In this document: positions 2,655 to 24,258 of the stretch, one piece after another
Numbering within the stretch: position 1 is the first letter of the stretch
Layout of the letters: each line of letters starts with the position of its first letter
IMG/VR virus record: IMGVR_UViG_3300045988_019467
Direction: 5' to 3' (one strand)
From: a virus
Taxonomy: Duplodnaviria; Heunggongvirae; Uroviricota; Caudoviricetes
Length of the DNA: 43,946 nucleotides
The notes under the pieces: model-generated
The model's database searches: none
Seen by the model: only the letters and a program-made list of their open reading frames with translations
What the model was told of the DNA's origin: nothing
Made by a program: the position numbers and the translations under genes

Positions 2655-2674
2655 AAGGCCCCGAAAGGGGCCTT
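2655..2674. terminator. bidirectional intrinsic terminator hairpin (AAGGCCCC-GAAA-GGGGCCTT)
   Basis: Perfect 8-bp GC-rich stem with GAAA loop, flanked by an A-run upstream and T-rich run downstream; sits between convergent genes; identical 20-mer at 12429..12448. Confidence 0.6.
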
Positions 2675-2678
2675 AATT

Positions 2679-2999
2679 TTATAGCTTAAGTTCTTCCGGC
2701 ACATCCGGCACGGCGTTATATTCCCACCATTCAGAACCATCGTATTCTCCGCGAGAAGACCATGTACCATCTTCGTACCAAATTACCCCGAAGAAGTTTT
2801 GACCGCCATAACCGTTGTGATATTCAAAATCAAGTGCGACCATTAGGCTTTCCCATTCTCCGCGGGAGTAATTCTCCCGCAGGATCCATTTACTCCCCTC
2901 AACGAAACCGTAATCCGCGTCATAGTCTGCAAACCAGGCGCATTTAACTACATCTTTACCATCCAGATGGGCGAGCAACTCTTCTTTAGCATTAATCAT
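2679..2999 (-). CDS. hypothetical small acidic, aromatic-rich protein (moron)
   Basis: 106-aa minus-strand ORF inside the plus-strand head module; strong RBS AAGAGGAAG upstream of ATG 2999; about 22 D/E versus about 8 K/R with many W/Y/F. Confidence 0.55.
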   Translation of the reverse strand: MINAKEELLAHLDGKDVVKCAWFADYDADYGFVEGSKWILRENYSRGEWESLMVALDFEYHNGYGGQNFFGVIWYEDGTWSSRGEYDGSEWWEYNAVPDVPEELKL

Positions 3000-3024
3000 G
3001 TTTTCTTCCTCTTTGCCGTTTAAC

Positions 3025-3056
3025 TGAATAGTACCCTATTATATTGGTGTCTGCAA
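3025..3056 (-). promoter_or_regulatory. class-1 promoter-like element, copy 1 (on minus strand: TTGCAG-N7-TATAAT-AGGGTACTATTCA)
   Basis: Perfect TATAAT on the minus strand about 40 nt upstream of ATG 2999; conserved about 30-bp motif repeated at 5180, 15061, 37806 and 39002, each oriented toward the adjacent operon. Confidence 0.5.
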
Positions 3057-3100
3057 ATATTATTTTTATGCGTTACACTGGCGATACTACAGGAGGGCAC

Positions 3101-4144
3101 ATGAGCTTACTTACATCCCTAATCAGCCACCAGATATGGCTGCAACGCGCCGCATCCGGTGAGGTGAAAGACCTTGCACCGTTTCTTCAGGAAATGCGGG
3201 ACGAAATCAAACGGCAGGTCCTGTTATTCGGCGACGACAGGCGAAGCACCGCGCGACTGAATAAACTGTTACGTGACCTTGAAGAAGCATTAACCGGACT
3301 TACGGGTGACTGGCGGACAAAGCTGACAGAAGACCTTAAGGAACTGGCGGCGTATGAGGCCGAGTGGAACGTAAAGACACTTACCGCCAACGTAGACGCG
3401 GAATTTGTTACGCCTACCGCCGAACAGGTGTGGGCCGCTGCCGAGTTTCAGCCCTTATCGTTAAGCGACAAGCCCGTCGATTTCACGAAACTTATGGAAG
3501 GCTGGGGTGAAACAGAAGTATCACGCCTCGTTACCGGCGTTAAGATGGGCTTTGTCCAGGGCCAGACGACACGGCAGATTATCAAGAGCGTGGTCGGCTC
3601 TGGCGGACTGGCGGACATCTCGGAACGCAATGCAGCTACCGTAATCCGCACTGCGCTGTCTCACGTGTCCAACGAAGCACGCAACGAGACGTACCGCCAG
3701 AACTACGACATCATCGAGAAATACGAATGGGTGTCAACGCTGGACAGCCGTACCAGTACGATTTGCAGAGCCAGAGACGGAATGACGTGGGAAATTGGTA
3801 AAGGGCCGATGCCTCCGGCCCATTTTGGGTGCAGAAGTACCACGGCCCCGGTAATTAGTTCCGAGTTTGACTTCCTCGATAAAGGCGCAAAACGAGCGGC
3901 TAAGGGCGCGGACGGCGGCACTCAGGTAAGCGAAGACACCACTTATTACGAGTTCCTCAAACAACAACCGGCATGGTTTCAGGACCAAGCGCTCGGGCCG
4001 ACCCGCGGTAAGATTTTCCGTAACAGCGGTATATCGCCGGAGGAGTTTCGCGTAATATCTGTAGATGGTTTCGGGAATCCGCTCACGCTTAAGCAGATGG
4101 CGGAACTCGATAAACGTGTTGCCGATTATCTGAAAGGGGAATAA
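3101..4144 (+). CDS. head morphogenesis protein (putative, Mu F / SPP1 gp7-like by position)
   Basis: ORF downstream of portal; start chosen at ATG 3101 with RBS AGGAGGG at 3091..3097; assignment is by synteny and size, not a recognised motif. Confidence 0.5.
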   Translation: MSLLTSLISHQIWLQRAASGEVKDLAPFLQEMRDEIKRQVLLFGDDRRSTARLNKLLRDLEEALTGLTGDWRTKLTEDLKELAAYEAEWNVKTLTANVDAEFVTPTAEQVWAAAEFQPLSLSDKPVDFTKLMEGWGETEVSRLVTGVKMGFVQGQTTRQIIKSVVGSGGLADISERNAATVIRTALSHVSNEARNETYRQNYDIIEKYEWVSTLDSRTSTICRARDGMTWEIGKGPMPPAHFGCRSTTAPVISSEFDFLDKGAKRAAKGADGGTQVSEDTTYYEFLKQQPAWFQDQALGPTRGKIFRNSGISPEEFRVISVDGFGNPLTLKQMAELDKRVADYLKGE

Positions 4145-4146
4145 TT

Positions 4147-4605
4147 ATGGGCTTTTTCAAAGTAACTGATGTGCCGTCGCGCCGTGTCGTCCAGTACGCT
4201 CGCGTGTCTGGCTCCGGGGAGAGCGTGGTGTTTATTGAAGATGAAAGTGTGCTCGGTACACCCGTAGACGATATGCCGTTTGCGGATAAAACCGGTATTG
4301 CGCTGCCAGCGGCGGGCATGCTTTACGAGATTCCGTATCTGGCCGATGCTGGTGATGTGTATTTCTCTATGCAACCGAAAGACACTGAATTGGTGGACGG
4401 CAGCGCAACTATCACTGTCGAAGTTAAGGCAGGCAAAGCGCCGTATGTTCTGACCTGGTACAAAGATGGTAAGGAAGTAGTAAACGCCCCGGAAGAGGCT
4501 TTGTCTCTGACGGTTAACGCGGTGGGTGAATACTTCGTTAAAGTTACTGATGCCGATGGTGTAGAGGCCGTCAGTAAAGCGGCGAAGGTCACCAAACCAG
4601 AATGA
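4147..4605 (+). CDS. Ig-like domain protein (possible capsid decoration or accessory structural protein)
   Basis: C-terminal region has an Ig-like beta-sandwich sequence pattern (TITVEVKAGKAPYVLTWYKDGKEV...GEYFVKVTDADG); a similar pattern recurs in 8306..8647. Confidence 0.5.
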   Translation: MGFFKVTDVPSRRVVQYARVSGSGESVVFIEDESVLGTPVDDMPFADKTGIALPAAGMLYEIPYLADAGDVYFSMQPKDTELVDGSATITVEVKAGKAPYVLTWYKDGKEVVNAPEEALSLTVNAVGEYFVKVTDADGVEAVSKAAKVTKPE

Positions 4606-4608
4606 TAT

Positions 4609-4629
4609 AAGGCCCCTTAACGGGGCCTT
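4609..4629. terminator. bidirectional intrinsic terminator hairpin (AAGGCCCC-TTAAC-GGGGCCTT)
   Basis: GC stem followed by TTAGTTTTATTT; between convergent genes 4147..4605 (+) and 4634..5155 (-); same stem sequence as 2655, 12429 and 24233. Confidence 0.6.
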
Positions 4630-4633
4630 AGTT

Positions 4634-5155
4634 TTATTTAAATCGCGCAGGCATTAACACCATAAAGGCCGTGTTTGAAAATGATATTTTGCATCCTCTG
4701 GTTTGGTCCTGGAAATCGAAACGAGAAATTTCATTTTTGTACGCCTTAGAAATCTTGTACGCGTCTGCCAAATAACGCAGAGTGAACCCTATACTATCGA
4801 CAACACCCGGTGTGATGTGCGCCACGCGTTTCCAGTCAGGAAAGTTTCCTTCTACAACATCTACCGGAAGTGTACATATAAGCGCGCGACTATCGTCATA
4901 GAAAGAAACACTGCCGTTGTCGTGGTCTACCTCTGCGTAGTTAAATTTAGAAGGCTCTCTCCCTTTGATATCAATGAGAACCCCTTTCTCAACGTTTGTC
5001 TTCACATTGTCGCAGAACAATCTATGCCCATTCGTAGACACTATCAACCCCTCAGGTTCTATGTAAAAAGCGTTCAAATAGTAGCGCACATCGTTTTTAG
5101 CCCTGCAGATTTTCGCCCCTACATACGCAGGGAAAGTAATTACCGTAGTAACCAT
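4634..5155 (-). CDS. hypothetical protein (moron, unknown function)
   Basis: 173-aa minus-strand ORF with RBS AGGAGATG before ATG 5155; own promoter-like element and terminator; no motif recognised. Confidence 0.55.
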   Translation of the reverse strand: MVTTVITFPAYVGAKICRAKNDVRYYLNAFYIEPEGLIVSTNGHRLFCDNVKTNVEKGVLIDIKGREPSKFNYAEVDHDNGSVSFYDDSRALICTLPVDVVEGNFPDWKRVAHITPGVVDSIGFTLRYLADAYKISKAYKNEISRFDFQDQTRGCKISFSNTAFMVLMPARFK

Positions 5156-5179
5156 TTCTCATCTCCTGTTTAAGTTAAC

Positions 5180-5211
5180 TGAATAGTACCCTATTATATT
5201 GGAGTATGCAA
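5180..5211 (-). promoter_or_regulatory. class-1 promoter-like element, copy 2 (on minus strand: TTGCAT-N7-TATAAT-AGGGTACTATTCA)
   Basis: Same motif as 3025..3056; TATAAT on the minus strand about 40 nt upstream of ATG 5155. Confidence 0.5.
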
Positions 5212-5263
5212 ACTATTTGTTTACGCATTCCAGTTATTACACTCAATTGTAAATGTTGGAATA

Positions 5264-5306
5264 AACTATTCGAATAGTTGACTTTTCACTAAAAATATGC
5301 TAAGCT
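5264..5306 (+). promoter_or_regulatory. 16-bp perfect palindrome AACTATTCGAATAGTT overlapping a sigma70-like promoter (TTGACT-17-TAAGCT)
   Basis: Perfect palindrome at 5264..5279 built from the same CTATTC/GAATAG half-sites as the repeated operator; TTGACT at 5278..5283 and TAAGCT at 5301..5306. Confidence 0.35.
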
Positions 5307-5487
5307 CCACCTGAGCTTGTGAAGTATGAACAAGCGACCGCGTCGCGGGCAGGTAACGGAGCTGGACGTAAGTCCTGAGTGTAGTTACGCTGACGCGTCC
5401 GGAAGGGCCATACTCTATTGCTTGTGTAAAAAAGTAACTGATTTACTGAGATTACGCCGTTTCTGTGTTTAAATGATAAGGACTAGC

Positions 5488-5512
5488 GCCCCGCTTTAAG
5501 GCGGGGCTTTAC
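5488..5512 (+). terminator. intrinsic terminator or attenuator hairpin just upstream of the spanin genes
   Basis: GCCCCGC-TTTAAG-GCGGGGC stem-loop followed by TTTACTT; lies 20 nt before the i-spanin RBS. Confidence 0.4.
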
Positions 5513-5531
5513 TTATCGAGAAAGGAGAAAC

Positions 5532-5918
5532 ATGAATCTTAAAGCAACTGTCGTAGCGGGAGCATGTTTCATCATCCTGGCTTACGCACACGGCATCTAC
5601 CAGTACCACAGCGGCTGGAACGAAGGCCGGGCGAATCTCGTTTCGCAGCAACAGCAGAAAGCACAGGCTGAGTTAGCGAAGAAAACACAACGGCAGCAGC
5701 AAGATGAATCGAAGGCCGCAGCCGCCGACAACGAAGGCAAGACGAAATCAGAGGTGATTACCCGTGAAGTCGTTAAGTACATTAAAACGCCTGGCCGCAG
5801 CGTGTGCACTTTCGACGATGCTCGCGTCCTGCTCAAGTCCCGCGCCGTCGCAAACGCCAATTCCATCCCCGGATACGACAATGATGCAGCCTCCGTGCAA
5901 ACTGGCGCCGCCAAGTAG
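5532..5918 (+). CDS. i-spanin (Rz-like inner-membrane spanin)
   Basis: N-terminal transmembrane helix (VVAGACFIILAYAHGIY) followed by a Q/A/K-rich coiled-coil-like region; an o-spanin-like lipoprotein ORF overlaps its 3' end in another frame; RBS AAAGGAGA. Confidence 0.65.
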   Translation: MNLKATVVAGACFIILAYAHGIYQYHSGWNEGRANLVSQQQQKAQAELAKKTQRQQQDESKAAAADNEGKTKSEVITREVVKYIKTPGRSVCTFDDARVLLKSRAVANANSIPGYDNDAASVQTGAAK

Positions 5919-6027
5919 CGACGCTGACGAGGATTTAGCTATCGACGTCCAGAACGCCGAATGCGTACGGCAGCTGAGGCTGAAAGTGTTCATGTTGCAG
6001 GATTACGTGAGGAATATTCTGGAATAG
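5764..6027 (+). CDS. o-spanin (Rz1-like outer-membrane lipoprotein), overlapping the i-spanin gene
   Basis: Signal peptide with lipobox L-A-S-C, proline-rich mature region; GTG start with RBS GAGGTGA; begins inside the i-spanin gene in a different frame and extends past it. Confidence 0.65.
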   Translation: MKSLSTLKRLAAACALSTMLASCSSPAPSQTPIPSPDTTMMQPPCKLAPPSSDADEDLAIDVQNAECVRQLRLKVFMLQDYVRNILE

Positions 6028-6109
6028 TTGCCTTGCATGTTGGAATAATTTATTCTTGACATGTAAATCCGGGTGGCCCGGGTTCCAACGTCCAGGGGAC
6101 ATACTGACT

Positions 6110-6811
6110 ATGAATCGTTTTTTACGTTATCCGTTCCAGGAAGAAGCTGGGGCAGAAGATAAAGCTGGTGGCGGTGACGCGCCAAAAATGTTCACAGCCG
6201 AAGAAGTTCAGGCGCTGATTGAGAAAGAAGTCGCCGGTCTTAAGGCTAATCAGGAAGCATTGCTGGCGGAGAAGAAAGAAGCCGCTCGTAAAGCAAAAGA
6301 GGCCGAAGAAGAACGGCAGCGCGCGCACCAGGAGGCACTAAAAGCCGCCGGTAAGATGGACGAGTTCGAAAAGACGATTCGTAGCCAGTATGACCCGGTG
6401 TTAGCCGAGAAAGATGGTCGCATCTCCAAAATGGCGGAGCGCATCCTCGGCAGCGAACGTAAAGCGGTGTTAGGCTCTTTCGCAGGTGACTTCATCACCC
6501 CGGAAGCAGTGGACATTCTTGCACCGTTCGTTAAGACTGAGTTCGAAGGCGATGATGTGGTTACTAAGTTTGTTGGCGCAGATGGCAACGTAATCACGAC
6601 TGACCCTGAACAGTTCCGCAAATACCTGCGCGAACATAAAGCGTTTTCGCATTTGATTAAAGCAAATGCAGCTTCCGGCGGCGGGGCTTCCGGTGGCAAA
6701 GGCGGCGGGGCCGCACCAGCGTTTAAAGACATGAGTGAATCGGAGCGTTTAGCTCTGTATAAATCGAACCCTGCCGAATTTGAACGGCAACTTAAAGCCC
6801 TGAGGAAATAA
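6110..6811 (+). CDS. capsid scaffolding protein (putative)
   Basis: Highly charged, Ala/Glu/Lys-rich, coiled-coil-like protein immediately upstream of the major capsid gene; start taken at ATG 6110. Confidence 0.55.
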   Translation: MNRFLRYPFQEEAGAEDKAGGGDAPKMFTAEEVQALIEKEVAGLKANQEALLAEKKEAARKAKEAEEERQRAHQEALKAAGKMDEFEKTIRSQYDPVLAEKDGRISKMAERILGSERKAVLGSFAGDFITPEAVDILAPFVKTEFEGDDVVTKFVGADGNVITTDPEQFRKYLREHKAFSHLIKANAASGGGASGGKGGGAAPAFKDMSESERLALYKSNPAEFERQLKALRK

Positions 6812-6813
6812 TA

Positions 6814-7863
6814 ATGGCAATTACCACTATCGGCGATATCGTAACTGGCAACATCCCGGTCCTGGCGTCTTATATGACCGAGGACCCGGTGGAAAAAACC
6901 GCGTTCTTTCAGTCCGGTATTCTGACCCCGACTCCGTACGCTGCCGAGATTGCTCGCGGCCCGTCCAACATCGCCAACATTCCTTTCTGGAAAGCGATTG
7001 ATACTTCTATCGAGCCTAACTACTCGAACGATGTGTACCAGGACATTGCAACCCCGCGCAACGTGCAAACCGGCGAGATGATGGCCCGTGTTGCGTACCT
7101 GAACGAAGGTTTTGGTCAGGCGGACCTGACTGTTGAACTTACCAGCCAGAATCCGCTGCAATCCGTGGCTTCTCGTCTGGATAACTTCTGGCAGCGCCAG
7201 GCACAACGCCGTCTGATCGCTACCGCGCTCGGTCTGTACAACGACAACGTAGCCGCTACCGACGCGTACCACGAGCAGAACGACATGGTTGTAGACGTGT
7301 CCGCTACTCTGGGCTTCGATGCTGGCGCGTTCATCGACGCTACCCAGACTATGGGTGATGCACTGATGGGTAACGGTGGTGAAGTGCTGGGCGCTATCGC
7401 TATGCACAGCTTCGTATACGCGCAGGCGCGTAAGCAGCAGCTCATTGACTTCATCAAAGACGCTGACAACGACACCCTGTTTGCCACCTACCAGGGCTAC
7501 CGTGTGATTGTTGACGACAGCATGACCGTAGTCGGCACCGGCGGCAGCCGTAAGTTCATCTCCATCATCTTCGGCAACGGCGCTATCGGTTATGGAGAAG
7601 GTAACCCGACCAATCCGCTGGCATATGAGCGCGAAGAGTCCCGCGGCAACGGCGGTGGCGTCGAAACCCTGTGGACCCGTAAGACATGGTTGCTGCACCC
7701 GTTTGGTTACAGCTTCACCAGCGCGGTGATCACCGGCAACGGCACCGAGACTGTTGCACGCTCCGCTTCCTGGCAGGACCTGGCGAACGCATCCAACTGG
7801 AACCGTGTTGTTGAGCGTAAGCACGTACCGATTGCCTTCCTGGTAACTGGTGTAGGGGCTTAA
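6814..7863 (+). CDS. major capsid protein (putative)
   Basis: 349-aa ORF right after the scaffold-like gene and followed by a terminator hairpin; assignment by synteny and size. Confidence 0.65.
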   Translation: MAITTIGDIVTGNIPVLASYMTEDPVEKTAFFQSGILTPTPYAAEIARGPSNIANIPFWKAIDTSIEPNYSNDVYQDIATPRNVQTGEMMARVAYLNEGFGQADLTVELTSQNPLQSVASRLDNFWQRQAQRRLIATALGLYNDNVAATDAYHEQNDMVVDVSATLGFDAGAFIDATQTMGDALMGNGGEVLGAIAMHSFVYAQARKQQLIDFIKDADNDTLFATYQGYRVIVDDSMTVVGTGGSRKFISIIFGNGAIGYGEGNPTNPLAYEREESRGNGGGVETLWTRKTWLLHPFGYSFTSAVITGNGTETVARSASWQDLANASNWNRVVERKHVPIAFLVTGVGA

Positions 7864-7879
7864 GGTTAAGCTATAATCG

Positions 7880-7907
7880 AGAGGGACTTCGGTCCCTCTT
7901 TTCATTT
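7880..7907 (+). terminator. intrinsic terminator after the capsid gene
   Basis: AGAGGGAC-TTCG-GTCCCTCT stem-loop followed by TTTCATTT. Confidence 0.55.
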
Positions 7908-7922: not shown

Positions 7923-8294
7923 ATGGCTAAGACCGGAAAAGGCTTGCCGCGCAGCCTTCAGAATGTCGACTTCGGCGACCTGGACATCAGCGTAGGCTGG
8001 GGAGAAGTAACAGGTAAACCGGCGGTAATCGCGGCGGGGGCGACCCAAGAGGCGGCACGTACCGCTATTGGTGCAGGTACGTCAAGCCTTGCGATCGGAA
8101 CAACTTCGACTACCGCGATGGCGGGAAATAAGTTCGTTCAGGGTGCTGCGGTTACAGACGTCGGCACGCAGACCGTTACGGGTGAAGAGGCTGCCGCGGT
8201 TGCTACGTCCGCACAGACTGCGGTTAACGCGGTAGGCACTCAACTTAACGCCTTACTGGCACAACTTCGTGCCGCTAAAATCATCGCATCCTGA
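7923..8294 (+). CDS. hypothetical Ala/Thr-rich structural protein
   Basis: 123-aa ORF with RBS-like AAGAGGTG upstream; inside the head gene block. Confidence 0.45.
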   Translation: MAKTGKGLPRSLQNVDFGDLDISVGWGEVTGKPAVIAAGATQEAARTAIGAGTSSLAIGTTSTTAMAGNKFVQGAAVTDVGTQTVTGEEAAAVATSAQTAVNAVGTQLNALLAQLRAAKIIAS

Positions 8295-8647: not shown

Positions 8648-8683
8648 TGCGACGGCCCTTCGGGGCCGTAATAAGGAAAGGTC

Positions 8684-8863: not shown

Positions 8864-8866
8864 TTT

Positions 8867-10842: not shown

Positions 10843-11255
10843 TGGGCTACTTTGAGGACTTAACCAAAGCGTTTGATGTGCCGTTGGTAGCCTTCGGGAA
10901 CGCAAACGGCATCAAGGTTGCGCTTGAAAACATCGACGCGCCGACGTCAACAGATACGCCGTATCTGGCGAGTTACATGTTGCTGGCGGATACGGAACAG
11001 GCGGATTTGTTCTTCACCGAGCAACGCTCTGGTATCTATCAGGTCGACATTAACTACGCATCGGTGAAAGGTAGCGCGCCAATCAATAAAATGGCAGACT
11101 TACTTAACACGGCGTTTAAAGCAGGTAAGTCATTTTCACGTAACGACATCTGCGCCGAGGTTCAATCGGTTAGCCTGGGGCCGCTGATTGTAGAAAACGG
11201 ATGGGCCAAACGACCATTGTCAATTAACTTTATTGCATTCACCAAGAGGCTGTGA
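10842..11255 (+). CDS. tail terminator / tail completion protein (putative)
   Basis: 137-aa ORF immediately upstream of the tail-tube-sized gene. Confidence 0.4.
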   Translation: MGYFEDLTKAFDVPLVAFGNANGIKVALENIDAPTSTDTPYLASYMLLADTEQADLFFTEQRSGIYQVDINYASVKGSAPINKMADLLNTAFKAGKSFSRNDICAEVQSVSLGPLIVENGWAKRPLSINFIAFTKRL

Positions 11256-12424
11256 ATATGGCTACAACTCCTTTTAAGGGCGCGACTACCGCGCAATTCT
11301 ATGTGGCGGAAACTACCCCTGGCGTAACACCGACTAACCCGGTATGGTCGCCGTTGCGTAACACAGGTGGCGTTCCTGCTATTACCCGTGACACGCTGAC
11401 CTCCAACGAACTGGACGGCAGCCGTGAAACTACATCCATCCGAACCGGTAACAAACAGGTTAGCGGTGAATACGCGGTCGAGCTTAGCTCTAAAAGCCAG
11501 GACGACTGGCTGGCGGGTGCTTTAGGCTCTACGTGGCAATCCGGTGTTTCTCTGTCGGGGCTGTCGATTACCGTCGCACCGGTGGGCAAGACGTTCACCC
11601 GTGCCGAAGGTAGCTTTATTACTGACGGTGTGGAAGTAGGCGACCTGATTGCGTTTACTGACTTAACCGGCGATAACGCTAAACCGTTTATTGTTACTGC
11701 GGTAGAGGCACTGGTGGTAACTGGTGCGGGTATTCAACACACTCTGATCGCCGAGACTGCTACTACCGCGGCTAAGACCGGCGACAAACTGGAAACCGGC
11801 AGCCAGTGTAAGACGTTCTCTATTCTCACCTGGTACAAGGGCCAGTGCGGCGGGACAGACGCGTACACGCTTACCAAAGGCGTGGAAGTTTCTGGTTTCA
11901 CTGTTGAACAGGCCGTTAACGCGATGGTGACGGGCAGCTTCCCGTTCATCGGGCGCAGCCAGGAGATTCTTACCGCGGCGCCGTCTGGTTCCGACTTCTC
12001 CTCTGTTACGTTTGGTGACGAGCCGTTCTCCTCGGTTGACGTTTCCGTGTTCGATGGTTCTACGCCGTTGCGTTGCGACAGCCTGACCATCACCAACGAC
12101 AACAGCGCGTCCGCACAGTTCGAACTCGGCAACACTAACGTTGCATTTGTTGAGCGTAGCCGCGCGGCTAACACCTTCTCTATCTCTGGCAAGCTGTACG
12201 ACATGGCGATGATTCAGAAGTTTATCAACGAACAGCAGGTAGAGATTAACTCTATTCTGGCTGGGGTAAACGGGGCTATGTCTTTCAGTTTGAAACGTGC
12301 AGAACTCACGGCGGTCACACCGGAGATTGGCGGACCTGAGTCAATCACTCAGTCTATTGAAGGCCAGGCTACTGGCAACCAGTACCAGTCGTCTATTGTT
12401 ATCCAGCGTATCACCTACGCATAA
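11252..12424 (+). CDS. major tail (tube) protein (putative)
   Basis: 390-aa Thr/Ser/Gly-rich ORF between neck genes and the tail chaperone/tape measure genes; followed by a strong terminator. Confidence 0.5.
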   Translation: MNMATTPFKGATTAQFYVAETTPGVTPTNPVWSPLRNTGGVPAITRDTLTSNELDGSRETTSIRTGNKQVSGEYAVELSSKSQDDWLAGALGSTWQSGVSLSGLSITVAPVGKTFTRAEGSFITDGVEVGDLIAFTDLTGDNAKPFIVTAVEALVVTGAGIQHTLIAETATTAAKTGDKLETGSQCKTFSILTWYKGQCGGTDAYTLTKGVEVSGFTVEQAVNAMVTGSFPFIGRSQEILTAAPSGSDFSSVTFGDEPFSSVDVSVFDGSTPLRCDSLTITNDNSASAQFELGNTNVAFVERSRAANTFSISGKLYDMAMIQKFINEQQVEINSILAGVNGAMSFSLKRAELTAVTPEIGGPESITQSIEGQATGNQYQSSIVIQRITYA

Positions 12425-12428: not shown

Positions 12429-12454
12429 AAGGCCCCGAAAGGGGCCTTTTTCTT
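12429..12454. terminator. bidirectional intrinsic terminator (AAGGCCCC-GAAA-GGGGCCTT + TTTTTCTT)
   Basis: 20-mer identical to 2655..2674 followed by a T-run; separates the tail tube gene from the convergent moron operon. Confidence 0.65.
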
Positions 12455-12629
12455 ACTCACTTTTGAATGCCATTTCGTAGAAGTTAGTTAACTGACCTCT
12501 GTCACTCCGTTCTGTCATCTCTTTTGCGGCCTCTTCCTTGCTACCTACGGCGTAAATATCAACCCACTCATCCCATTCTTCGTCATATACGCGGATAACG
12601 TATATTGTTCCCATTGTGCCTTCACGCAT
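12453..12629 (-). CDS. hypothetical small acidic protein (last gene of moron operon; start uncertain)
   Basis: ORF in frame to 12659; start placed at the internal ATG 12629 to limit overlap with the upstream gene. Confidence 0.35.
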   Translation of the reverse strand: MREGTMGTIYVIRVYDEEWDEWVDIYAVGSKEEAAKEMTERSDRGQLTNFYEMAFKSE

Positions 12630-13191
12630 TTGGGTAAATCCCCAGGATTCTATTAGCAATCGCGGCCGCTGTTAATGTAATCTCGCCTGGGATGACCACA
12701 ACGTCATGACATACCGCACCATCAATACCGTACAGGTAACCACGACTATCCCCGTCAAACGTATAGCCGTCTCTGCGCAAGCGAACGATTTTTACGTCAT
12801 GCCCTGCGGCGACGATAGGGGACACTTCACTGGCGAATCCACCGTCTGACACTACAAAAACGTCATCGCCGTCGGGCAAGTTTTCAGCAAGATACTTACC
12901 GAAATAATCGCCGCCGAGAACCGGTTTAATGAATTGCTCAGAAATGGCAATCATGAACTGACGACGAGACAAACCATTAAGGAAACCCTCTGGCTTTTCT
13001 TTCCGCGCCCGGTCGTCGTAGCCGTCGAGAAACTCGTGGTACGCATCCGGACCTAACGCTGCCAGAGCAATATTGAACATTGGATTTTTGAAACTGGTAG
13101 CACCCTTCGCAAAGCCCATTTCTACCAGCGCCATAGCAAGTGTGTCTTTCCCACAACCCGCCGGGCCATTAAGAATAATTACCTTAGCCAT
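12622..13191 (-). CDS. P-loop kinase (dNMP kinase-like or polynucleotide 5'-kinase-like)
   Basis: N-terminal Walker A GPAGCGKDT resembling phage dNMP kinase and PNK P-loops; translationally coupled to the upstream HAD gene. Confidence 0.55.
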   Translation of the reverse strand: MAKVIILNGPAGCGKDTLAMALVEMGFAKGATSFKNPMFNIALAALGPDAYHEFLDGYDDRARKEKPEGFLNGLSRRQFMIAISEQFIKPVLGGDYFGKYLAENLPDGDDVFVVSDGGFASEVSPIVAAGHDVKIVRLRRDGYTFDGDSRGYLYGIDGAVCHDVVVIPGEITLTAAAIANRILGIYPNA

Positions 13192-13676
13192 TATTTATCG
13201 CTCCCGTGTGATTTTAAGTGTGTAGAATTCCCGTTACAGTCGTATTCAGTAACCGCGTGAGTGGTTATACCGAGTCCGCGGAAATGCTTTATTACCGCCG
13301 GAGAGTCGTCGAATGCGCACAATATTCTTTCCAGCCCGATAGCACGTAACACCTCTTCTTTAATTACGATGTCTTTTCTGTTGTCGTGTTTGCTGCGCAT
13401 GATTAACTGATAAAATTCGACGCGGTGGCGCTGCAACCACATTCTGGTTTCTTTTTCTGCATCATCACTGCGACCAGTTAAAATAATAACGGCGTAGCGA
13501 CGATTAAGGGCGTTACACAGTTCGATGTTATCTCTAATTGGTTCATCATCTTTGCACGCCATGTTAAAGGGTTTCCACGCCCATGTTTCGTTGTAGTTAT
13601 CTTTCGGCAGCAGGTGTAAACGATGTGTACCATCTGCCAATGTTCCATCTAAATCGAAAATTACAATATCTTTCAT
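13191..13676 (-). CDS. HAD-superfamily phosphatase (T4 Pnkp phosphatase-like motif I)
   Basis: N-terminal IVIFDLDGTL (DxDGT catalytic motif I of HAD phosphatases, as in the T4 Pnkp 3'-phosphatase domain). Confidence 0.6.
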   Translation of the reverse strand: MKDIVIFDLDGTLADGTHRLHLLPKDNYNETWAWKPFNMACKDDEPIRDNIELCNALNRRYAVIILTGRSDDAEKETRMWLQRHRVEFYQLIMRSKHDNRKDIVIKEEVLRAIGLERILCAFDDSPAVIKHFRGLGITTHAVTEYDCNGNSTHLKSHGSDK

Positions 13677-14803
13677 CCCAGCATCTCCGGTGAAATAGTT
13701 AAACGTGCGACCTCGCCGTATTCGGCGCTATAAGTAATTACATTTGCACTGCGTCCTGACATCCATCCGCCGCGAGAGGCGTAGGCGTCTTTCGCCGCTA
13801 AGGTGCGGTGTTGCTCAACAATCATGTTACGGCTTTCTACAATCTTCTGGTGGTGCAGGTGGCCTACGTGGGCGTAGCTGTACACGCTTTCGCCAAATGC
13901 TTTGCGGAACTTGGCAATCATAACCGGTTCGATAGCGTCGAATCGTGCTTTATGCCCGTGGTGAAAGAACAACGTCGTTTTGCCGTGTTGCACCATCTTG
14001 TAAACATCCGGCGACGTATCGACGAACACACGCGGCTCATTGTCGTACAGCGTGTTGAACATCTCAGCCAGCCAAATCATACCCGATTCGTCGTGGTTCC
14101 CTTGCACGATAAGCAAGCGAACGGTTTTATGTTTAACAAGCGCCATATCAACAACACGGCGCACCATACGAATCATGTAGCGAACCAGTTTCTGATAGCG
14201 AGTATCGGCGTCCAACACATGGCGCGACTCAGGTGTAACGGCGTCCAGGCTATCGAAGTGAGCAAAGTCACCCAGCAGGTTAATAACCCCGGTTCCCGCA
14301 TCTGGTGCTTTCTGAAACGCCGCATCGAACCAGCGAGAAAACAGGTCTTCCGCAATCTTCATATCCCAGTCGTCGCCGCTCTCGTCAGCCCAGGCCAGCA
14401 TACCGAGATGGAAATCAGATACCGTGTAAAGATTGAGCAGCTTGTCGTCGCGTTTGGTGCGGGCGGCTTTAACAGGCGCAACTGGAGTAATCTCTGACTT
14501 CATGCCCTCGATTACGGCTTTCATCAATTCGACCTGACGTTCGGCATCGGTATCGGTCTTAACCCATTGCAACTTAGTGTTGCCGAACTCGTCCACAAGT
14601 GACGATGTTCCTTTAATCTTGTAGCCGTCCGGCACAAGGTGGCTAACGTCACGCCCATGACCCACGCCTTTCTTCGCCAGCTTCGCTTTACGGATACGAA
14701 TAACGCGGTCTGAGATTCCGTACTTACGTGCGATATCAATAATCTTCATTCCGGCGTTCAATTCTTCCTGTAACTGTTCGTCGGTTATTTTCTTCTGGGC
14801 CAT
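13673..14803 (-). CDS. calcineurin-like metallophosphoesterase with N-terminal HTH domain
   Basis: MPE motifs D-x-H (VSDFHLG), GDxxH (LLGDFAHFD), GNHD (VQGNHDES), HHGH and GHLHH; N-terminal HTH-like segment (IARKYGISDRVIRIRKA); start at ATG 14803 with RBS GAGGAAG. Confidence 0.6.
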   Translation of the reverse strand: MAQKKITDEQLQEELNAGMKIIDIARKYGISDRVIRIRKAKLAKKGVGHGRDVSHLVPDGYKIKGTSSLVDEFGNTKLQWVKTDTDAERQVELMKAVIEGMKSEITPVAPVKAARTKRDDKLLNLYTVSDFHLGMLAWADESGDDWDMKIAEDLFSRWFDAAFQKAPDAGTGVINLLGDFAHFDSLDAVTPESRHVLDADTRYQKLVRYMIRMVRRVVDMALVKHKTVRLLIVQGNHDESGMIWLAEMFNTLYDNEPRVFVDTSPDVYKMVQHGKTTLFFHHGHKARFDAIEPVMIAKFRKAFGESVYSYAHVGHLHHQKIVESRNMIVEQHRTLAAKDAYASRGGWMSGRSANVITYSAEYGEVARLTISPEMLG

Positions 14804-14841
14804 GCTTACTTCCTCGTGTTTAGGATTTGTCTTATAGTAGC

Positions 14842-15033
14842 TTACTTCTCTTTCACGTTCGAGTTGCAAGCCCAGATTAAAATAAATACCCACGGCAGCA
14901 GAACCCAACCAAGAAACAGGTTAGCCATGAATATAGCTAACTTCGCTTTATGGTTACGGAAGTACGCAACCAGGAAAGGTGCGAAATAAGCGAGCAGTGC
15001 AAACAGAATTAAGGAAACTGGTAAACTGGACAT
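14842..15033 (-). CDS. small membrane protein (two predicted TM helices), first gene of moron operon
   Basis: Hydrophobic 63-aa ORF; start taken at ATG 15033 preceded by AAGGGG (an upstream ATG at 15048 is also possible). Confidence 0.4.
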   Translation of the reverse strand: MSSLPVSLILFALLAYFAPFLVAYFRNHKAKLAIFMANLFLGWVLLPWVFILIWACNSNVKEK

Positions 15034-15060
15034 TTTAAACCCCTTCATTGTTGGTGTAAG

Positions 15061-15092
15061 TGAATAGTACCCTATTATATTGGGGTGTGCAA
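15061..15092 (-). promoter_or_regulatory. class-1 promoter-like element, copy 3 (on minus strand: TTGCAC-N7-TATAAT-AGGGTACTATTCA)
   Basis: Same conserved motif; TATAAT on the minus strand about 40 nt upstream of ATG 15033. Confidence 0.5.
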
Positions 15093-15199
15093 GTAATATG
15101 GTAGAATAATTTTGCGCCTAGTGTCGCACACGAAAAGCGGGTGGTTCCCGTCTGGCGCATTTCCTTTAACCAGTAACCTCTTAACCAAAGGATTAAAGA

Positions 15200-15616
15200 A
15201 TGAAACTTTCTGATTTTTATTACGAAGCTGAAGCCGAAAAGGGTGCGCGTATGCCGATACCGTTAAAAGACGGTACCGATTCTGGGGAATGGCTTAATGT
15301 TGTTTCTCCTGAGGCAGACGTTGCCGTTAAGGCTATGCGCGCGTTCACCCTTGCATACCGGGCAGTGTTAGGGAAATTAAAACCGCTTCGTGATAAGTGC
15401 GAAGAGATGAAAGATTTCTCTGAATACAACCTGAAGATGGAAGATGCGGCCACGGACCTTAACCGACAGTTAGCAATTGAATTGATTAACGGGTGGAGCC
15501 TGGACGACGAATTCAATAAAGAGAATCTGAACACACTCCTGACGCAATATAAACGACTCGCGGAACTTGTTGTTGTGTTTCATAACGAACAACTGCGCCA
15601 GTTACAGGAAAAGTAG
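15200..15616 (+). CDS. tail assembly chaperone (gpG-like, putative)
   Basis: 138-aa acidic ORF immediately upstream of the tape measure gene; a -1 frame ORF overlaps its end. Confidence 0.5.
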   Translation: MKLSDFYYEAEAEKGARMPIPLKDGTDSGEWLNVVSPEADVAVKAMRAFTLAYRAVLGKLKPLRDKCEEMKDFSEYNLKMEDAATDLNRQLAIELINGWSLDDEFNKENLNTLLTQYKRLAELVVVFHNEQLRQLQEK

Positions 15617-19687: not shown

Positions 19688-22224
19688 TCCTGCACTACAC
19701 GCGAAATGCTAACGGTGTTTTCGACCGTACAAAACACGTCGGGATGCCAATGGAGTTTGTTGTTAACCATATCCCTGACGGCGTTCCTGTGCGCGTATAT
19801 CTCGGTGAGATTGGTGACGACACCGATATCACTGACGACTTCGACGCGCTTAAAGACGAAGACGCGGTGTATCACATAGTAGAAGGAGCTGGTGGAGGTG
19901 CGCTTGTAGTAGGTGCGCTTGTTGCTTTGGTCGTCGTTGCGGCTACGGTTTTACTAACTAAGAAACCGAGTCTGGCGGTAACAGCGACAAATAACCAAGC
20001 AAAATCCGCTAATAACAGCCTAACAGACCGCTCCAACAAGCCGCGTCCTTACGAGCGCTCTTATGACATATGCGGGACTGTGCAGACAATCCCTAACGAC
20101 CTTATGCAGACGTACAAGGCGTTCAACTCCACTGGTGCTTTGCTGGAGTATTCGTACTATGACGCTGGTCGCGGGCATCTGCATATTGAGGCTGATGGCG
20201 TCACGGAAGGCGACACCCTGATAAGCGACATCACAGGTTCTTCTGTTGCCGTGTACGCCCCCTATACATCACCAAACAATACAACTACCCCGCAACTACA
20301 AATCGGCGACGTCATTGACCAGAAACTCTATGTGACGTACTCCAACGACGACGTTGACGGTATTGTACTGAAAGCACCGAACGATATCGGGGCCAACCCA
20401 AGCGCCGACGGCACCGCTAAACGTATTTCAAACACCGGCTACATCTATGACCCGTCAGGAGACTCTGCTTTTTCTGAGTTTCTTAGCGTCGGTGATGTGG
20501 CGGTGCTGAGCAACTTTGACGTTGCGGATGTCACTAACCTGAACGGCTCGTTTGAGGTTTTATACGTTGACGACTTCGAAGTAAGATTAGCCGTAAACGG
20601 TGCGTCTAACTGGGCCGCGTTGACCAGCGGACAGACGTACACGCTAACAGAGCGTTCAGATACGTTTATCGGCCCGAGCAACACATATGACGTATCTCTT
20701 ACGGACTGGTATTACATGGTACGCGGAGAAGTTGACCGGGTACTTGCTAACGTTGCCGGGCAGAACGGCCTCTACAAATACGACGGCGGCTATAACCGTA
20801 CCAGCGTAACCGTAGAACTCCAGTATCAGATGATTGACTCTCAGCGTAACCCGTTGGGCGATATTTACACGGTACAGGCTACAATTACAGGCAACAATAC
20901 GGATTACGTCGGTACGTCTATCTATGGCCAATTGCCGACAGCGTCTCGTTTCCGTGCCCGCATGCGCCGCGTAACGAATTTCGACAAGGACTACGACGGG
21001 ACGGTAAGTGACGAGATAACCTTCATCAACCTGTACGGGCAGTCACTGGACACAACCCCACACTACGGCAACCGAACTACCGTACATTGTGCCCGTAAAC
21101 AGACGCCGCGCGCTGCCAGTATTGATAACCCTGAACTGCGCATGATCGCGACCGAGATGTGCTACAAATACTTAGGCAATGGGGTATTCGATACGGTAAT
21201 GACACCAAACACTCAGGCCGTGCAGTCGCTAATCAGGCTGGCGCGCGACCCGGCGGTGGGTAATCTGGAACTGACAACGGCAAACATGGATAAGTTACTA
21301 TCCGTGCAGGAAGAAATAGAGTCCTATTTCGGAAGTGAATTAGCGGGGCAGTTCTGCTACACGTTCGACGACTACGACACCACGATGCAGGACATCGTTC
21401 AGACCATAGCGGAAGCCGTGTTCTGTACTGCGTACCGTAAAGGCGCGGATATTATGCTGCGATTCGACCGTCCTGTCGCGGGGCCTGAAATGGTATTCAC
21501 ACACCGCAGTAAGACAACTGGTACGGAGAAATGGACCCGCACGTTCAACGATTCGACAACCTACGATAGCCTGTCGTTCTCGTACATTGACCCTGATACT
21601 AACGTACAGGAAACGATTTATATCCCGGAAGAACTCGGCGCAAACACCGAGGAGTACGAATCGAAGGGGGTGCGCAACTACCAGCAGGCGTACTGGCTGG
21701 CGTGGCGCCGCTACCAGCGCAACACGTTAAGTAAAGTTGTCGTAGAGTTTGAAGCTACGGAAGAAGGTGCGCTCGCCACCCCCGGCGGGGTAATCAGCGT
21801 TGTTAAAGGCTCTCGCATTGCGCCGCAAGATGGTTATGTTGTTGCCGTTAATGGGCTTACACTGACATTGTCCCAGCCTGTTACGTTTACCCCCGGAGAC
21901 GACCACTCCATCATTCTTAAGAAGCGCGACGGCTCCGTACAGAGTATCTCCGTTATCAAAGGAAGTCATGACCGCGAAGTGGTTATGCTCTCCGCGCCGG
22001 AGGAGGCAATCTACACGGGGAATAGCGCGCTAAAAACTGAGTTTTCATTCGGCAACGAAGCAAGGCATAATGCTCAGAAGATAGTTGTTTCTTCAATAGA
22101 CCCGGGCGATGACCGCACGGTCAAGATTACTGGCTACAACTATGACGACGGATTCTATAAATACGACGGCGTCGCACCTTTAGGCCGCGGTTTCTCCGAC
22201 GGATTCAGCAATGGTTTTAATTAA
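19678..22224 (+). CDS. tail tip protein: gpI-like N-terminal segment fused to a host-specificity gpJ-like region
   Basis: N-terminal region ends in a Gly-rich hydrophobic stretch (GAGGGALVVGALVALVVVAATVLL); downstream RARMRRVT resembles the lambda J IRMRRMT motif; start uncertain (TTG 19678 or ATG 19744). Confidence 0.55.
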   Translation: MAIILHYTRNANGVFDRTKHVGMPMEFVVNHIPDGVPVRVYLGEIGDDTDITDDFDALKDEDAVYHIVEGAGGGALVVGALVALVVVAATVLLTKKPSLAVTATNNQAKSANNSLTDRSNKPRPYERSYDICGTVQTIPNDLMQTYKAFNSTGALLEYSYYDAGRGHLHIEADGVTEGDTLISDITGSSVAVYAPYTSPNNTTTPQLQIGDVIDQKLYVTYSNDDVDGIVLKAPNDIGANPSADGTAKRISNTGYIYDPSGDSAFSEFLSVGDVAVLSNFDVADVTNLNGSFEVLYVDDFEVRLAVNGASNWAALTSGQTYTLTERSDTFIGPSNTYDVSLTDWYYMVRGEVDRVLANVAGQNGLYKYDGGYNRTSVTVELQYQMIDSQRNPLGDIYTVQATITGNNTDYVGTSIYGQLPTASRFRARMRRVTNFDKDYDGTVSDEITFINLYGQSLDTTPHYGNRTTVHCARKQTPRAASIDNPELRMIATEMCYKYLGNGVFDTVMTPNTQAVQSLIRLARDPAVGNLELTTANMDKLLSVQEEIESYFGSELAGQFCYTFDDYDTTMQDIVQTIAEAVFCTAYRKGADIMLRFDRPVAGPEMVFTHRSKTTGTEKWTRTFNDSTTYDSLSFSYIDPDTNVQETIYIPEELGANTEEYESKGVRNYQQAYWLAWRRYQRNTLSKVVVEFEATEEGALATPGGVISVVKGSRIAPQDGYVVAVNGLTLTLSQPVTFTPGDDHSIILKKRDGSVQSISVIKGSHDREVVMLSAPEEAIYTGNSALKTEFSFGNEARHNAQKIVVSSIDPGDDRTVKITGYNYDDGFYKYDGVAPLGRGFSDGFSNGFN

Positions 22225-22236
22225 AGAGGACTCTAT

Positions 22237-24228
22237 ATGTCAAGCGGATGCGGTGATGTTTTAAGCCTGGCGGATTTACAAACCGCCAAGAAACACCAGA
22301 TTTTCGAAGCAGAGGTAATTACCGGTAAATCTGGCGGAGTAGCCGGGGGTGCAGATATTGATTACTCCACCAATCAGGTTACTGGACAGACCCAGAAGAC
22401 GTTACCTGCCGTGTTGCGCAGCCTGGGTCTAGCCCCTGCATCTTTCGATTTCACATCTGGGGGTACTTTAACTACTGACGACAGGAACAAGGCCGTGTTA
22501 TGGCCCTCTACGGACGGCGGCGACGGGGACTGGTACTATTGGGCAGGTAGTTTGCCGAAGACTATACCGGCATCATCTACACCCGCATCTTCCGGCGGTG
22601 TAGGGGGAGGCGCATGGTTGTCTGTTGGGGGGGTTATTTTACGACAGGACCTGGCTGCTTTTGGTGGAGCATCATTGATTGGTCCAGGTGTAATGTCCCG
22701 CGGAAACGATAAGTTTTCTATCATGCAAGGGAGAACCGGGGAGTATCAAAACGATGGTATGACATACGGGATAGGAGTTATCCTTACGGACCCTATCACT
22801 GGCACTATACCCAACGCCAGCACTGCAAAATTTAACTACCTTGCTATCATAGACGACCAGGTTAATGCTGTTGACGATTTAACGGCCGGGACAAAAGTTG
22901 ACGGGCTACAGGTAAACCATGTTTTCGGCGGCACCGCAGCCAAAGGTGGCAGGCACGCGGCAGAATTTGTATCTACCCATAAATCACCTACCAGTGTCGA
23001 CAACCCGGACCGTAACTATGTGGGTGTGGTTGGGTTGGCAGTGTCGCAAAATGGCGACGGAGGGGCAGTATCAACGTCCCCGAGCACATTCAAAGGTGGG
23101 TACTTTGGCGGGAATATGTACGGTAGTTTGAGCCCATCCGCCGTTGGTGTATATAACGTGACCGCATGTGAGTTTAACACAGTAGCCTCCGAAGGGTCGT
23201 CTGTATGGTATAGGTCAGGGATTCAGGTCATTGGTGGTGGGGCCGTACAAGGAAGCGCCGTAGACGTTGGGGTTGCCTTGTCGAATCTTTCGACAGCTAC
23301 GGTCCGATGGAGAAACGCCTTTCGTATAGGGAACATGAATGGGGGGCACGCGTTAGCATCGGACAGCAAAATACTTGTAGCGTTTACCGATGTGACGTCG
23401 ATCGCATCTGGGTTCGAGATACCAAAGTGCTCAACTACTATTTTAACATCCGGAGACGTTAATTTACAGAACGATAAATTAATCATGAGCGCTTCTGGGT
23501 CTGCTATTGAACTGGGAAGCACCACAGCCCCAGGTACGGCATACATAGACTTTCACTCAAGCGGAAACCCTAACGATTATGATGCAAGGGTTGTGGTTAG
23601 TGGCGGGGCGTCGTCTTCCGGGCAAGGCACTTATGGGGTTAACGCGGGTGTTATTCAGCTTAATGCTTCTACTGAAGTCATAGCCGCCGCCAACATAAGA
23701 CCCTCTACGGACAATACCATATCGAATGGCACCGCGTCTAGACGGTGGTCTGTGGTATACGCGGGAACCGGGACGATAAACACATCAAATGAAGACCTCA
23801 AAGTACGGGATAAGATACTTGAAGCCGAACGTGCCGCGGCCCTGGAAATAAAGAATGACATATGGAAATTTAGATTCAAAGATGCTATCGCCGAGAAAGG
23901 CAACGGTGCCAGGTATCACTTTGGCGTAGGTGCGCAATCTATAGGTAAAATTTTGCGTAAGCATGGACTGGACCCTGAAATGTACGCTTTCTACTGCCAC
24001 GATACCTGGGACGCGGAGTATGAGCCAATCATGGCTAAGCGTACCGTACTTAAGGACCAAGAAGTAACGGAAATAGACGACCTAACCGGCAAAACTATTA
24101 CTACCACTAAGACGATTGAAGTCGAGGAAGAGTACGACACCGGGGAAAAGAGATGCACCTTAGAGGCAGGTGAAAACTTCGGCGTTCGCTATGAGGAACT
24201 TCTTTGTTTTATTATGGCGGCCCTGTAA
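22237..24228 (+). CDS. tail fibre with C-terminal intramolecular chaperone (peptidase S74-like) domain
   Basis: C-terminal region (...RAAALEIKNDIWKFRFKD...YHFGVGAQSIGKILRKHGLDPEMYAFYCHDTWDAEY...) matches the self-cleaving chaperone domain of endosialidase and L-shaped tail fibres; Gly-rich central region. Confidence 0.65.
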   Translation: MSSGCGDVLSLADLQTAKKHQIFEAEVITGKSGGVAGGADIDYSTNQVTGQTQKTLPAVLRSLGLAPASFDFTSGGTLTTDDRNKAVLWPSTDGGDGDWYYWAGSLPKTIPASSTPASSGGVGGGAWLSVGGVILRQDLAAFGGASLIGPGVMSRGNDKFSIMQGRTGEYQNDGMTYGIGVILTDPITGTIPNASTAKFNYLAIIDDQVNAVDDLTAGTKVDGLQVNHVFGGTAAKGGRHAAEFVSTHKSPTSVDNPDRNYVGVVGLAVSQNGDGGAVSTSPSTFKGGYFGGNMYGSLSPSAVGVYNVTACEFNTVASEGSSVWYRSGIQVIGGGAVQGSAVDVGVALSNLSTATVRWRNAFRIGNMNGGHALASDSKILVAFTDVTSIASGFEIPKCSTTILTSGDVNLQNDKLIMSASGSAIELGSTTAPGTAYIDFHSSGNPNDYDARVVVSGGASSSGQGTYGVNAGVIQLNASTEVIAAANIRPSTDNTISNGTASRRWSVVYAGTGTINTSNEDLKVRDKILEAERAAALEIKNDIWKFRFKDAIAEKGNGARYHFGVGAQSIGKILRKHGLDPEMYAFYCHDTWDAEYEPIMAKRTVLKDQEVTEIDDLTGKTITTTKTIEVEEEYDTGEKRCTLEAGENFGVRYEELLCFIMAAL

Positions 24229-24232
24229 AACT

Positions 24233-24258
24233 AAGGCCCCAAACGGGGCCTTTTCTCT
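24233..24258. terminator. bidirectional intrinsic terminator (AAGGCCCC-AAAC-GGGGCCTT + TTCTCT)
   Basis: Same stem as 2655, 4609 and 12429; between the tail fibre gene and the convergent minus-strand replication module. Confidence 0.6.

Follow-up and report, generated by a model that had tools for sequence, protein, structure and literature searches.

Here we analysed a family of repeated hairpins in the virus genome IMGVR_UViG_3300045988_019467 (IMG/VR; Caudoviricetes), a stretch of 43,946 nucleotides (nt) that is called the window throughout. Megablast identified the window as a complete Kagunavirus (Guernseyvirinae) genome; its closest record was Escherichia phage EcoPhCCP1 (95% identity over 89% of the first 25 kb), and hundreds of relatives from E. 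coli and Salmonella were matched as well. The gene map was taken from the annotations of Golestan, EcoPhCCP1 and Salmonella phage Ent1, and protein family labels from Pfam and PHROG matches. Four hairpins with one common stem follow the portal, decoration, major tail protein and tailspike genes, each facing an opposing minus-strand unit, and a promoter-like repeat heads the three accessory cassettes among these units (Table 1).

Table 1. Positions of the hairpins, promoter-like repeats, genes and cassettes in the window (aa, amino acids; ORF, open reading frame; RBS, ribosome-binding site; HTH, helix-turn-helix)
Feature	Position	Strand	Context
Hairpin copy 1, AAGGCCCC-GAAA-GGGGCCTT	2655-2674		portal gene (+) / 106-aa cassette ORF (-)
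Hairpin copy 2, AAGGCCCC-TTAAC-GGGGCCTT	4609-4629		Hoc-like gene (+) / 173-aa cassette ORF (-)
Hairpin copy 3, same 20-mer as copy 1	12429-12448		major tail protein gene (+) / minus-strand nucleotide-metabolism/Imm cassette
Hairpin copy 4, AAGGCCCC-AAAC-GGGGCCTT	24233-24252		tailspike gene (+) / end of minus-strand replication operon
Promoter-like repeat heading cassette 1, TTGCAg-17-TACTAT, short leader and RBS	3020-3077	-	
Promoter-like repeat heading cassette 2	5175-5232	-	
Promoter-like repeat heading cassette 3	15056-15113	-	
Copy of the repeat	37806-37842	+	before plus-strand early genes
Weaker inverted copies of the repeat	38998-39044, 34248-34268		
Portal gene	1158-2651	+	convergent with 2679-2999(-)
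Hoc-like decoration protein gene	4147-4605	+	convergent with 4634-5155(-)
Major tail protein gene	11252-12424	+	convergent with 12453-12659(-)
Tailspike gene	22237-24228	+	convergent with 24257-24394(-)
Cassette 1: 106-aa ORF, PHROG 3972, GC 0.46	2679-2999	-	
Cassette 2: 173-aa ORF, PHROG 3007 labelled 'RusA-like', GC 0.435	4634-5155	-	
Cassette 3: small ORF, dNMP kinase, PNKP-type phosphatase, metallophosphoesterase, Imm superinfection-immunity gene	12453-15048	-	
45-aa ORF, last gene of the minus-strand replication operon	24257-24394	-	ends 4 nt from hairpin copy 4
Fifth convergent junction (34508/34526), hairpin AAGGGGC-TTAAT-GCCCCTT	34497-34517	+	cro-like HTH gene / helicase-primase
Related 7-bp hairpin, AAGGCCC-AATGAA-GGGCCTT	30496-30515	-	between DUF2815 and DNA polymerase genes, both minus strand
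Related 6-bp hairpin, AGGCCC-CGAA-GGGCCT	27326-27341	-	between two minus-strand genes

Four hairpins with one stem

The pattern AAGGCCCC-N3-8-GGGGCCTT has exactly four matches in the window, at the four places that a first-pass annotation of the letters had named, and none in 100 dinucleotide-preserving shuffles of the window. Copies 1 and 3 are, as that annotation had also stated, one identical 20-mer, AAGGCCCCGAAAGGGGCCTT. All four copies lie between convergent genes, with the stop codons 3-4 nt from the stem on both sides. The stem has 8 bp, including six GC pairs, and folds at -14.8 to -15.8 kcal/mol whichever strand is read; copy 1, for example, reaches -15.8 kcal/mol (plus strand) and -14.9 kcal/mol (minus strand) and has a T-rich tail in both readings. 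The flanks are TAAAACT and TTTTCTTAC, or the inverse, A-rich on one side and T-rich on the other in every copy, and in the layout TAAAACT-stem-loop-stem-TTTTCTTA part of the T-tract is built from the complement of the opposing gene's stop codon (TAA or TAG). Downstream of the 8-bp stem there are 4-5 T in the first 8 nt, or 6-7 in 10 when the terminal TT of the stem is included, and the tract is interrupted (UUAGUUUUA, UUUUCUUAC). In a consensus terminator scan, both strands of copies 1 and 3 were flagged, but only the plus strand of copy 2; no Rfam family matched the hairpins. The similarity extends beyond the stem, to 86% over 37 nt between copies 3 and 4 and to inverted matches of 34-45 nt between the other copies. 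All four copies thus present the layout of a bidirectional terminator, with convergent genes, an A-rich 5' side and a T-rich 3' side, and they are most likely, as predicted from this anatomy, bidirectional intrinsic (Rho-independent) terminators, ordinary as such.

The proposal that the stem is reused at every strand switch goes too far: it occupies four of the five convergent junctions and no divergent one, and the stem at the fifth convergent junction differs. The divergent junctions carry a promoter-like repeat and no hairpin. This repeat, a second conserved cassette end that the first-pass annotation had missed, is 37-58 nt long and reads TTGCAn-17 nt-TACTAT towards the genes, with an AGGAG-type RBS about 20 nt further on. 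It matches the consensus tgAATAGTa-ccTATTat-T of the Kagunavirus fBC-Eco01, which was reported by PHIRE as a repeated 'phage promoter'. Since the same repeat stands before the cassettes and before plus-strand early genes, the three minus-strand cassettes would be driven by an early-gene element, and the repeat is presumably an active promoter. The cassettes have the hairpin at one end and the repeat at the other, with 350-2600 nt between them.

Two further observations concern promoter sequences. The internal palindrome of the repeat, AATAG-N4-CTATT, overlaps the -10-like TACTAT in all six copies, and it may double as an operator for a phage HTH protein (34293-34508 or 37056-37226). In the replication region, three near-consensus minus-strand sigma-70 promoters (27634-27662, 31214-31242 and 34199-34228) read TTGACA-17/18-TATAGT with 11 of 12 matches, and two of them share a further 22-nt repeat.

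Conservation in relatives and in unrelated viruses

Loci of relatives were compared around two genes, those of the major tail protein (59 loci) and the helicase (73 loci); single loci are given below by number (L). Salmonella phage vB_SenS-Ent1 (HE775250, Jerseyvirus; about 69% nucleotide identity) carries the identical 8-bp stem at the same four junctions, after the portal, decoration, major tail protein and tailspike genes, with loops that differ from those of the window. In GenBank its hairpins are given as individual terminators: three of them (portal, major tail protein and tailspike) are each entered on both strands, as overlapping 'putative rho-independent terminators', and the decoration-gene hairpin, which is present although its slot holds no cassette, is entered on the plus strand only. 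The bidirectional anatomy suggested by the first reading was hence predicted for a relative as well. Kagunavirus genome papers report 13 (Golestan) and 23 (fBC-Eco01) terminators, as predictions only, and no paper treating the Ent1-type hairpins as a repeat family or as slot ends was found in the literature searched.

In 40 of 58 loci, the most diverged at about 68-75% protein identity, the exact stem lies within 45 nt of the major-tail-protein stop codon. It follows the tailspike gene in about 50 loci; at this junction L190 has a fully compensated variant, AAAAGGGCC/GGCCCTTTT. At the major-tail-protein junction, more distant relatives keep a hairpin whose paired stem has another sequence (AAAGGGCC, AAAGGGGC, GGGGCC/GGCCCC or AAAGCCCC), and their other terminators have yet other stems that differ from site to site, without genome-wide co-variation. 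Judging from these alignments, what is conserved at the major-tail-protein and tailspike junctions is the structure and not the sequence. Among the relatives examined, one stem is used at several sites only in Kagunavirus and Jerseyvirus genomes, the ones with cassette slots. The loops are variable, and close relatives often have reverse-complementary loops in otherwise identical contexts (GAAA/TTTC and AAAC/GTTT), as was seen at the positions of window loops 12437-12440 and 24241-24244 and in L125, L131, L172, L183 and others. Reverse-complementary loops within the same flanks point to recurrent inversion of the loop across the stem, or to conversion between copies in opposite orientation.

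A motif scan of IMG/VR found the same stem in at least 120 stretches, and the following figures hold among the matches listed. At least 114 of the stretches, with GC contents of 30%-67%, had no similarity to the window. Their copies are A-rich upstream (mean of 4.5 A per 8 nt) and T-rich downstream (mean of 4.4 T per 8 nt), and the commonest loops were GAAA, TTTC, CGAA and TTCG. The stem lay no more than 40 nt past the end of a long ORF in 98 of 116 copies, 28 copies being between convergent ORFs, and two copies occurred in only 2 of the 114 unrelated loci. The occurrence in at least 114 unrelated contigs indicates a common terminator design and not a lineage signature, and a lineage-specific motif was rejected on the ground that, of the 120 viral contigs listed, 114 show no relation to the window. 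What is unusual in the window is the repeated use of the stem, not the stem itself. One of these contigs, L023 (IMGVR_UViG_3300000553_000395), is without detectable similarity to the window and has two identical copies of AAGGCCCCGAAAGGGGCCTT (7490-7509 and 8250-8269), flanked by TAAAACT and TAAGAAA as in window copies 3 and 1, on either side of an AT-rich gene with about 230 codons.

These comparisons bear on the suggestion that the stem is recognised by a specific phage or host factor, such as an antiterminator, a processing nuclease or an RNA-binding regulator. The invariance of the stem across two genera, with loops free to vary, would suit such a factor. It nevertheless fits poorly with the many unrelated phages that share the stem, with the other stems of the major-tail-protein hairpin in distant relatives, whose remaining terminators do not change in step, and with the stems AAGCCCC or AGCCCC at empty slots; no candidate protein was seen among the family-scanned proteins. 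Pairing on two transcripts would by itself explain the slow drift of the stem, because a G.U wobble on one transcript would be a C.A mismatch on the other and the stem could probably not drift stepwise. We therefore consider recognition by a dedicated factor highly improbable.

Cassette slots and mosaic boundaries

Each junction region of the relatives was aligned to the window. Homology broke within 20 nt of the hairpins, and the coincidence of the two in this synteny comparison bore out the proposal that the hairpins bound cassettes and modules. At the decoration slot, late-gene homology ended at 4629-4647 in 27 relatives (the hairpin ends at 4629) and was regained on the right at 5147-5180 where another cassette was present or at 5227 where the slot was empty. 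At the portal slot it was regained at 3020 in cassette-bearing relatives and at 3101 in empty ones, and the orthologous hairpin of copy 1 was found only in relatives with a cassette at this slot. At the major-tail-protein slot homology ended at 12448-12460, and a second variable block (14835-15060) abutted the repeat, the variable genes of cassette 3 being the terminator-proximal and promoter-proximal ones. Within the tailspike gene homology was lost past the N-terminal anchor (22400-22640), returned at 24224-24233, that is at the stop codon and hairpin, and was lost again after 24362 or 24394; the 45-aa ORF and hairpin copy 4 form a conserved island with a variable region on each side.

The content of the slots is diverse. 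The 220 nt beside the hairpin formed 13 clusters in 15 cassette-bearing loci at the portal slot, 11 in 26 at the decoration slot and 12 in 45 at the tail slot. The ORF of cassette 1 is missing from most relatives, that of cassette 2 has no Pfam match, and the cassette ORFs have a GC content of 0.435-0.48 against 0.52-0.54 in the flanking late genes. Empty slots carry a shorter, one-way hairpin, TATAGCCCC-GAAA-GGGGCT after the portal gene and AAGCCCC-GAAA-GGGGCTT after the decoration gene. In several genomes (L152, L144, L145 and L001) the stems are one-sided or hybrid.

Cassettes were also found in different slots. The window segment 4609-5232, whose limits are the start of hairpin 2 and the end of the repeat, matched the portal-slot cassette of L124 at 90.6% over 625 nt, and the decoration slot of L124 is empty. 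L124 is of portal-slot type to the left of the hairpin and to the right of a 23-nt core, TGAATAGTACCCTATTATATTGG, and of decoration-slot type between them, with the junctions of the unit inside the 20-nt hairpin and inside the 23-nt promoter core. A second cross-slot pair, L151 (portal) and L132 (decoration), shares 268 nt at 88%. Hairpin and promoter core are the ends of exchanged units. Such alignments make it likely that recombination uses hairpin and promoter as short homology, as opposed to selection keeping only junctions of this kind.

Our preferred reading is that the hairpins are two-way terminators with a shared sequence that double as the fixed ends of expression slots, together with the repeated promoter; we put its probability at roughly 0.7. 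Its main competitor, which we regard as unlikely, is convergence alone: a near-optimal compact terminator would have arisen or been kept separately at each junction, with no role in recombination, and the surviving recombinants would be those joined between genes. Convergence would account for the wide occurrence of the stem in unrelated phages as a single copy just past ORF ends, for the variation of stems among sites in more distant relatives, and for the finding that the cassette shared by L151 and L132 has different stems in its two slots (AAAGCCCC and AAGGCCCC, respectively). It does not readily explain why similarity between the copies outlasts the stem, both in direct and in inverted matches, why the other end of the cassette is also a repeat, or why the junctions of the translocated unit fall within the hairpin and the promoter core. 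The confinement of multi-site stem use to the slot-carrying Kagunavirus and Jerseyvirus among the relatives examined, and the rarity of two copies among the unrelated loci listed, argue in the same direction.

A more active form of mobility can also be imagined, in which the hairpin, extruded or single-stranded during replication, would be a structure-specific site cut by a phage nuclease or resolvase, giving an integrase-free, integron-like mobilisation of cassettes from slot to slot and even between unrelated phages. The position of the junctions in the hairpin, the frequent loop inversions, the gene of L023 and the RusA-like PHROG label of cassette 2 are hints of this, none decisive, and we hold the idea to be very doubtful. 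Integron attC sites are imperfect palindromes of about 57-141 nt that are recognised by the integron integrase. The hairpins resemble them in being palindromes at the 3' end of an exchangeable ORF cassette, and differ in being perfect hairpins of 20-21 nt with terminator flanks. No integrase was found among the scanned cassette and small-protein ORFs, nor is one annotated in two close relatives. The attC/integron reading was rejected on the size of the element and on this lack of an integrase among the scanned proteins and in the relatives' annotations.

Proposed two-way termination, read-through and known systems

Under the preferred reading of two-way terminators as slot ends, each hairpin would act where a plus-strand late gene meets a minus-strand unit, either a cassette or, at the tailspike, the end of the replication operon. 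Whichever strand is transcribed, the RNA would fold into this 8-bp stem, and a U-rich stretch containing the opposing stop codon in complement would come next. Minus-strand transcripts begun at the TTGCAn-17-TACTAT element would be halted there, so that cassette transcription would not continue as antisense RNA through the portal, decoration and major tail genes. For plus-strand late transcripts, the hairpin would be a point of termination or attenuation behind the portal, decoration protein, major tail protein and tailspike genes. The identity of the four stems probably has two causes in combination, structural constraint and homologous recombination: recombination at 20-37 nt repeats during co-infection may keep the copies uniform, as has been proposed for motifs of T4-like phages discussed below, and repeated hairpin and repeated promoter together would provide portable homology for ORF swaps.

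Plus-strand termination is probably partial or overridden, because no separate promoter is evident for the late genes downstream; the three divergent regions were found to share no plus-strand promoter. This implies either partial termination or an unrecognised antitermination device.

Two neighbouring features of the late region are described here in their own right. Between the cassette-2 promoter and an Rz-like gene lies a non-coding stretch of about 300 nt (5233-5531), parts of which are 72-74% identical in Ent1. It contains a conserved promoter-like site, TTGACT-17-TAAGCT, and ends in a strong hairpin with a T-tail (5488-5507; fold z = -2.6 for the stretch); no Rfam match was obtained for this leader. 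Its layout, with promoter, structured leader and terminator before late genes, recalls lambda PR'/6S/tR'. In addition, plus-strand positions 15111-15175, which directly follow the cassette-3 repeat and precede the gene for the tail assembly chaperone (at 15200), match the Rfam int-alpA RNA (RF02996; 36.6 bits against a gathering score of 35.8, E = 4.6e-4), and this match could bear on late-gene read-through.

Several points weigh against the combined reading of terminators and slot ends. The consensus scan missed copy 4, which fell narrowly short on T-count with the full 8-bp stem, and the minus strand of copy 2, and the U-tracts are short and interrupted (e.g., UUAGUUUUA). The promoter-like repeat matches the sigma-70 consensus only moderately, at 3-4 of 6 positions per hexamer. 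Efficient plus-strand termination would cut the late operon into pieces, and a Pfam scan of ten small early or regulatory proteins returned only HTH, DUF551 and NinH and no Q-like antiterminator. From the different stems of the cassette shared by L151 and L132 it follows that ORF and hairpin are sometimes inherited separately. Random recombination with subsequent selection would likewise place breakpoints at gene ends. Finally, the searchable literature yielded no Guernseyvirinae transcriptome or termination assay.

The imperfect U-tracts and the need of downstream late genes for read-through would also fit hairpins that serve mainly as stabilisers of messenger RNA 3' ends or as processing signals and not as stop sites for the polymerase, and GC-rich hairpins without T-tails do occur between co-directional genes in the window (8652-8669 and 27326-27341). 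Against this stand the A-rich and T-rich flanks at all four copies and at the unrelated copies, and the convergent junctions, where insulation is needed and a terminator is suited. The two roles are compatible, and we consider a mainly stabilising function improbable.

The other hairpins of the window can be set beside the four copies. The related stems noted by the first-pass annotation exist, with small offsets in position and 6 or 7 bp, and stand between co-directional minus-strand genes and not at strand switches. The 7-bp hairpin has a T-tail on the minus strand only and is kept in Kagunavirus and some Jerseyvirus loci, another genus having AAGGCCCGC-GAAA-GCGGGCTT there; the 6-bp hairpin has no clear T-tract and is not a canonical terminator. 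The hairpin of the fifth convergent junction has a stem unlike that of the four copies and a T-tail on the plus strand only, so that minus-strand helicase-primase transcripts would run antisense through the cro-like gene. The TAA stop codon of this cro-like gene falls in the loop of its own terminator (GAAGGGGC-TTAAT-GCCCCTT). A further hairpin, ACGGCCC-TTCG-GGGCCGT, follows the second Hoc-like gene at 8652-8669, has a T-tract on neither strand and is kept in relatives (L001 at 7975, L159 at 6025 and L156 at 7403); a role in RNA stabilisation or processing is more likely for it than one in termination. At the ends of the window, positions 1-99 are an exact duplicate of 43848-43946, and this terminal duplication indicates a circularly closed assembly with a genome of about 43,847 bp.

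A moron, in the sense of Hendrix and co-workers, is a gene with its own promoter and terminator inserted between operon genes of lambdoid phages. This anatomy, with promoter-like repeat, ORF or ORFs and terminator-like hairpin, is complete in each of the three cassettes, which resemble lambdoid morons in being accessory, variably present, lower in GC than their neighbours and equipped with a promoter-like element and a terminator of their own. Whereas a classical moron is usually described as a single insertion that brings its own signals, in the cassettes the same promoter and terminator sequences recur at several slots and the ORF between them is exchanged. The moron concept has also been applied to phage eta (PMC3918226).

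In T4-like phages, promoter-early stem-loop (PeSL) cassettes are repeated motifs that flank non-essential ORFs in hyperplastic regions. They are found where close relatives differ by an insertion, deletion or replacement, and homologous recombination between the motifs is given as the cause; promoter activity, terminator activity and mini-circles have been demonstrated for them (Arbiol et al. 2010, PMC2839356; Comeau et al. 2014, PMC4122927). The slots of the window likewise have repeated motifs at the ends of insertions, deletions and replacements between close relatives. In contrast, a PeSL is a contiguous terminator plus sigma-70-like early promoter between co-directional myovirus genes, whereas the hairpin of the window is two-way, and promoter and hairpin lie at opposite ends of an inverted ORF in a siphovirus late operon. 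Lacking the contiguous composite motif, they are not PeSLs proper.

As for the predicted terminators themselves, two-way terminators between opposing genes are widespread in E. coli, where Ju et al. (2019) described them genome-wide by SEnd-seq, as summarised in PMC13500782. The hairpins share with these the GC-rich palindrome, the A-tract and T-tract and the position between convergent stop codons, and differ in that one sequence occurs four times in 44 kb and is kept across two phage genera, and in that the U-tracts are short and partly derived from stop codons. What is already known is the putative terminators, annotated in a relative, and the principle of moron insertion or PeSL shuffling that the swap slots follow. 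What differs is the layout, with the motifs at opposite ends of an inverted ORF and a two-way terminator.

Kagunavirus and Jerseyvirus phages are widely isolated for therapy against E. coli and Salmonella. In these phages, three defined slots among the structural genes contain accessory ORFs that form a large, quickly exchanged set. The same hairpin also bounds the tailspike at its C-terminal part, a portion that relatives swap and that presumably determines host specificity. Fixed slot ends of this kind, with a hairpin of 20 nt and a promoter/leader of about 23-58 nt, would explain where recombination takes place and suggest ready-made insertion sites for engineering. Furthermore, they would carry over to a siphovirus subfamily the idea, known from the PeSLs of T4-like myoviruses, that regulatory motifs act as portable homology.

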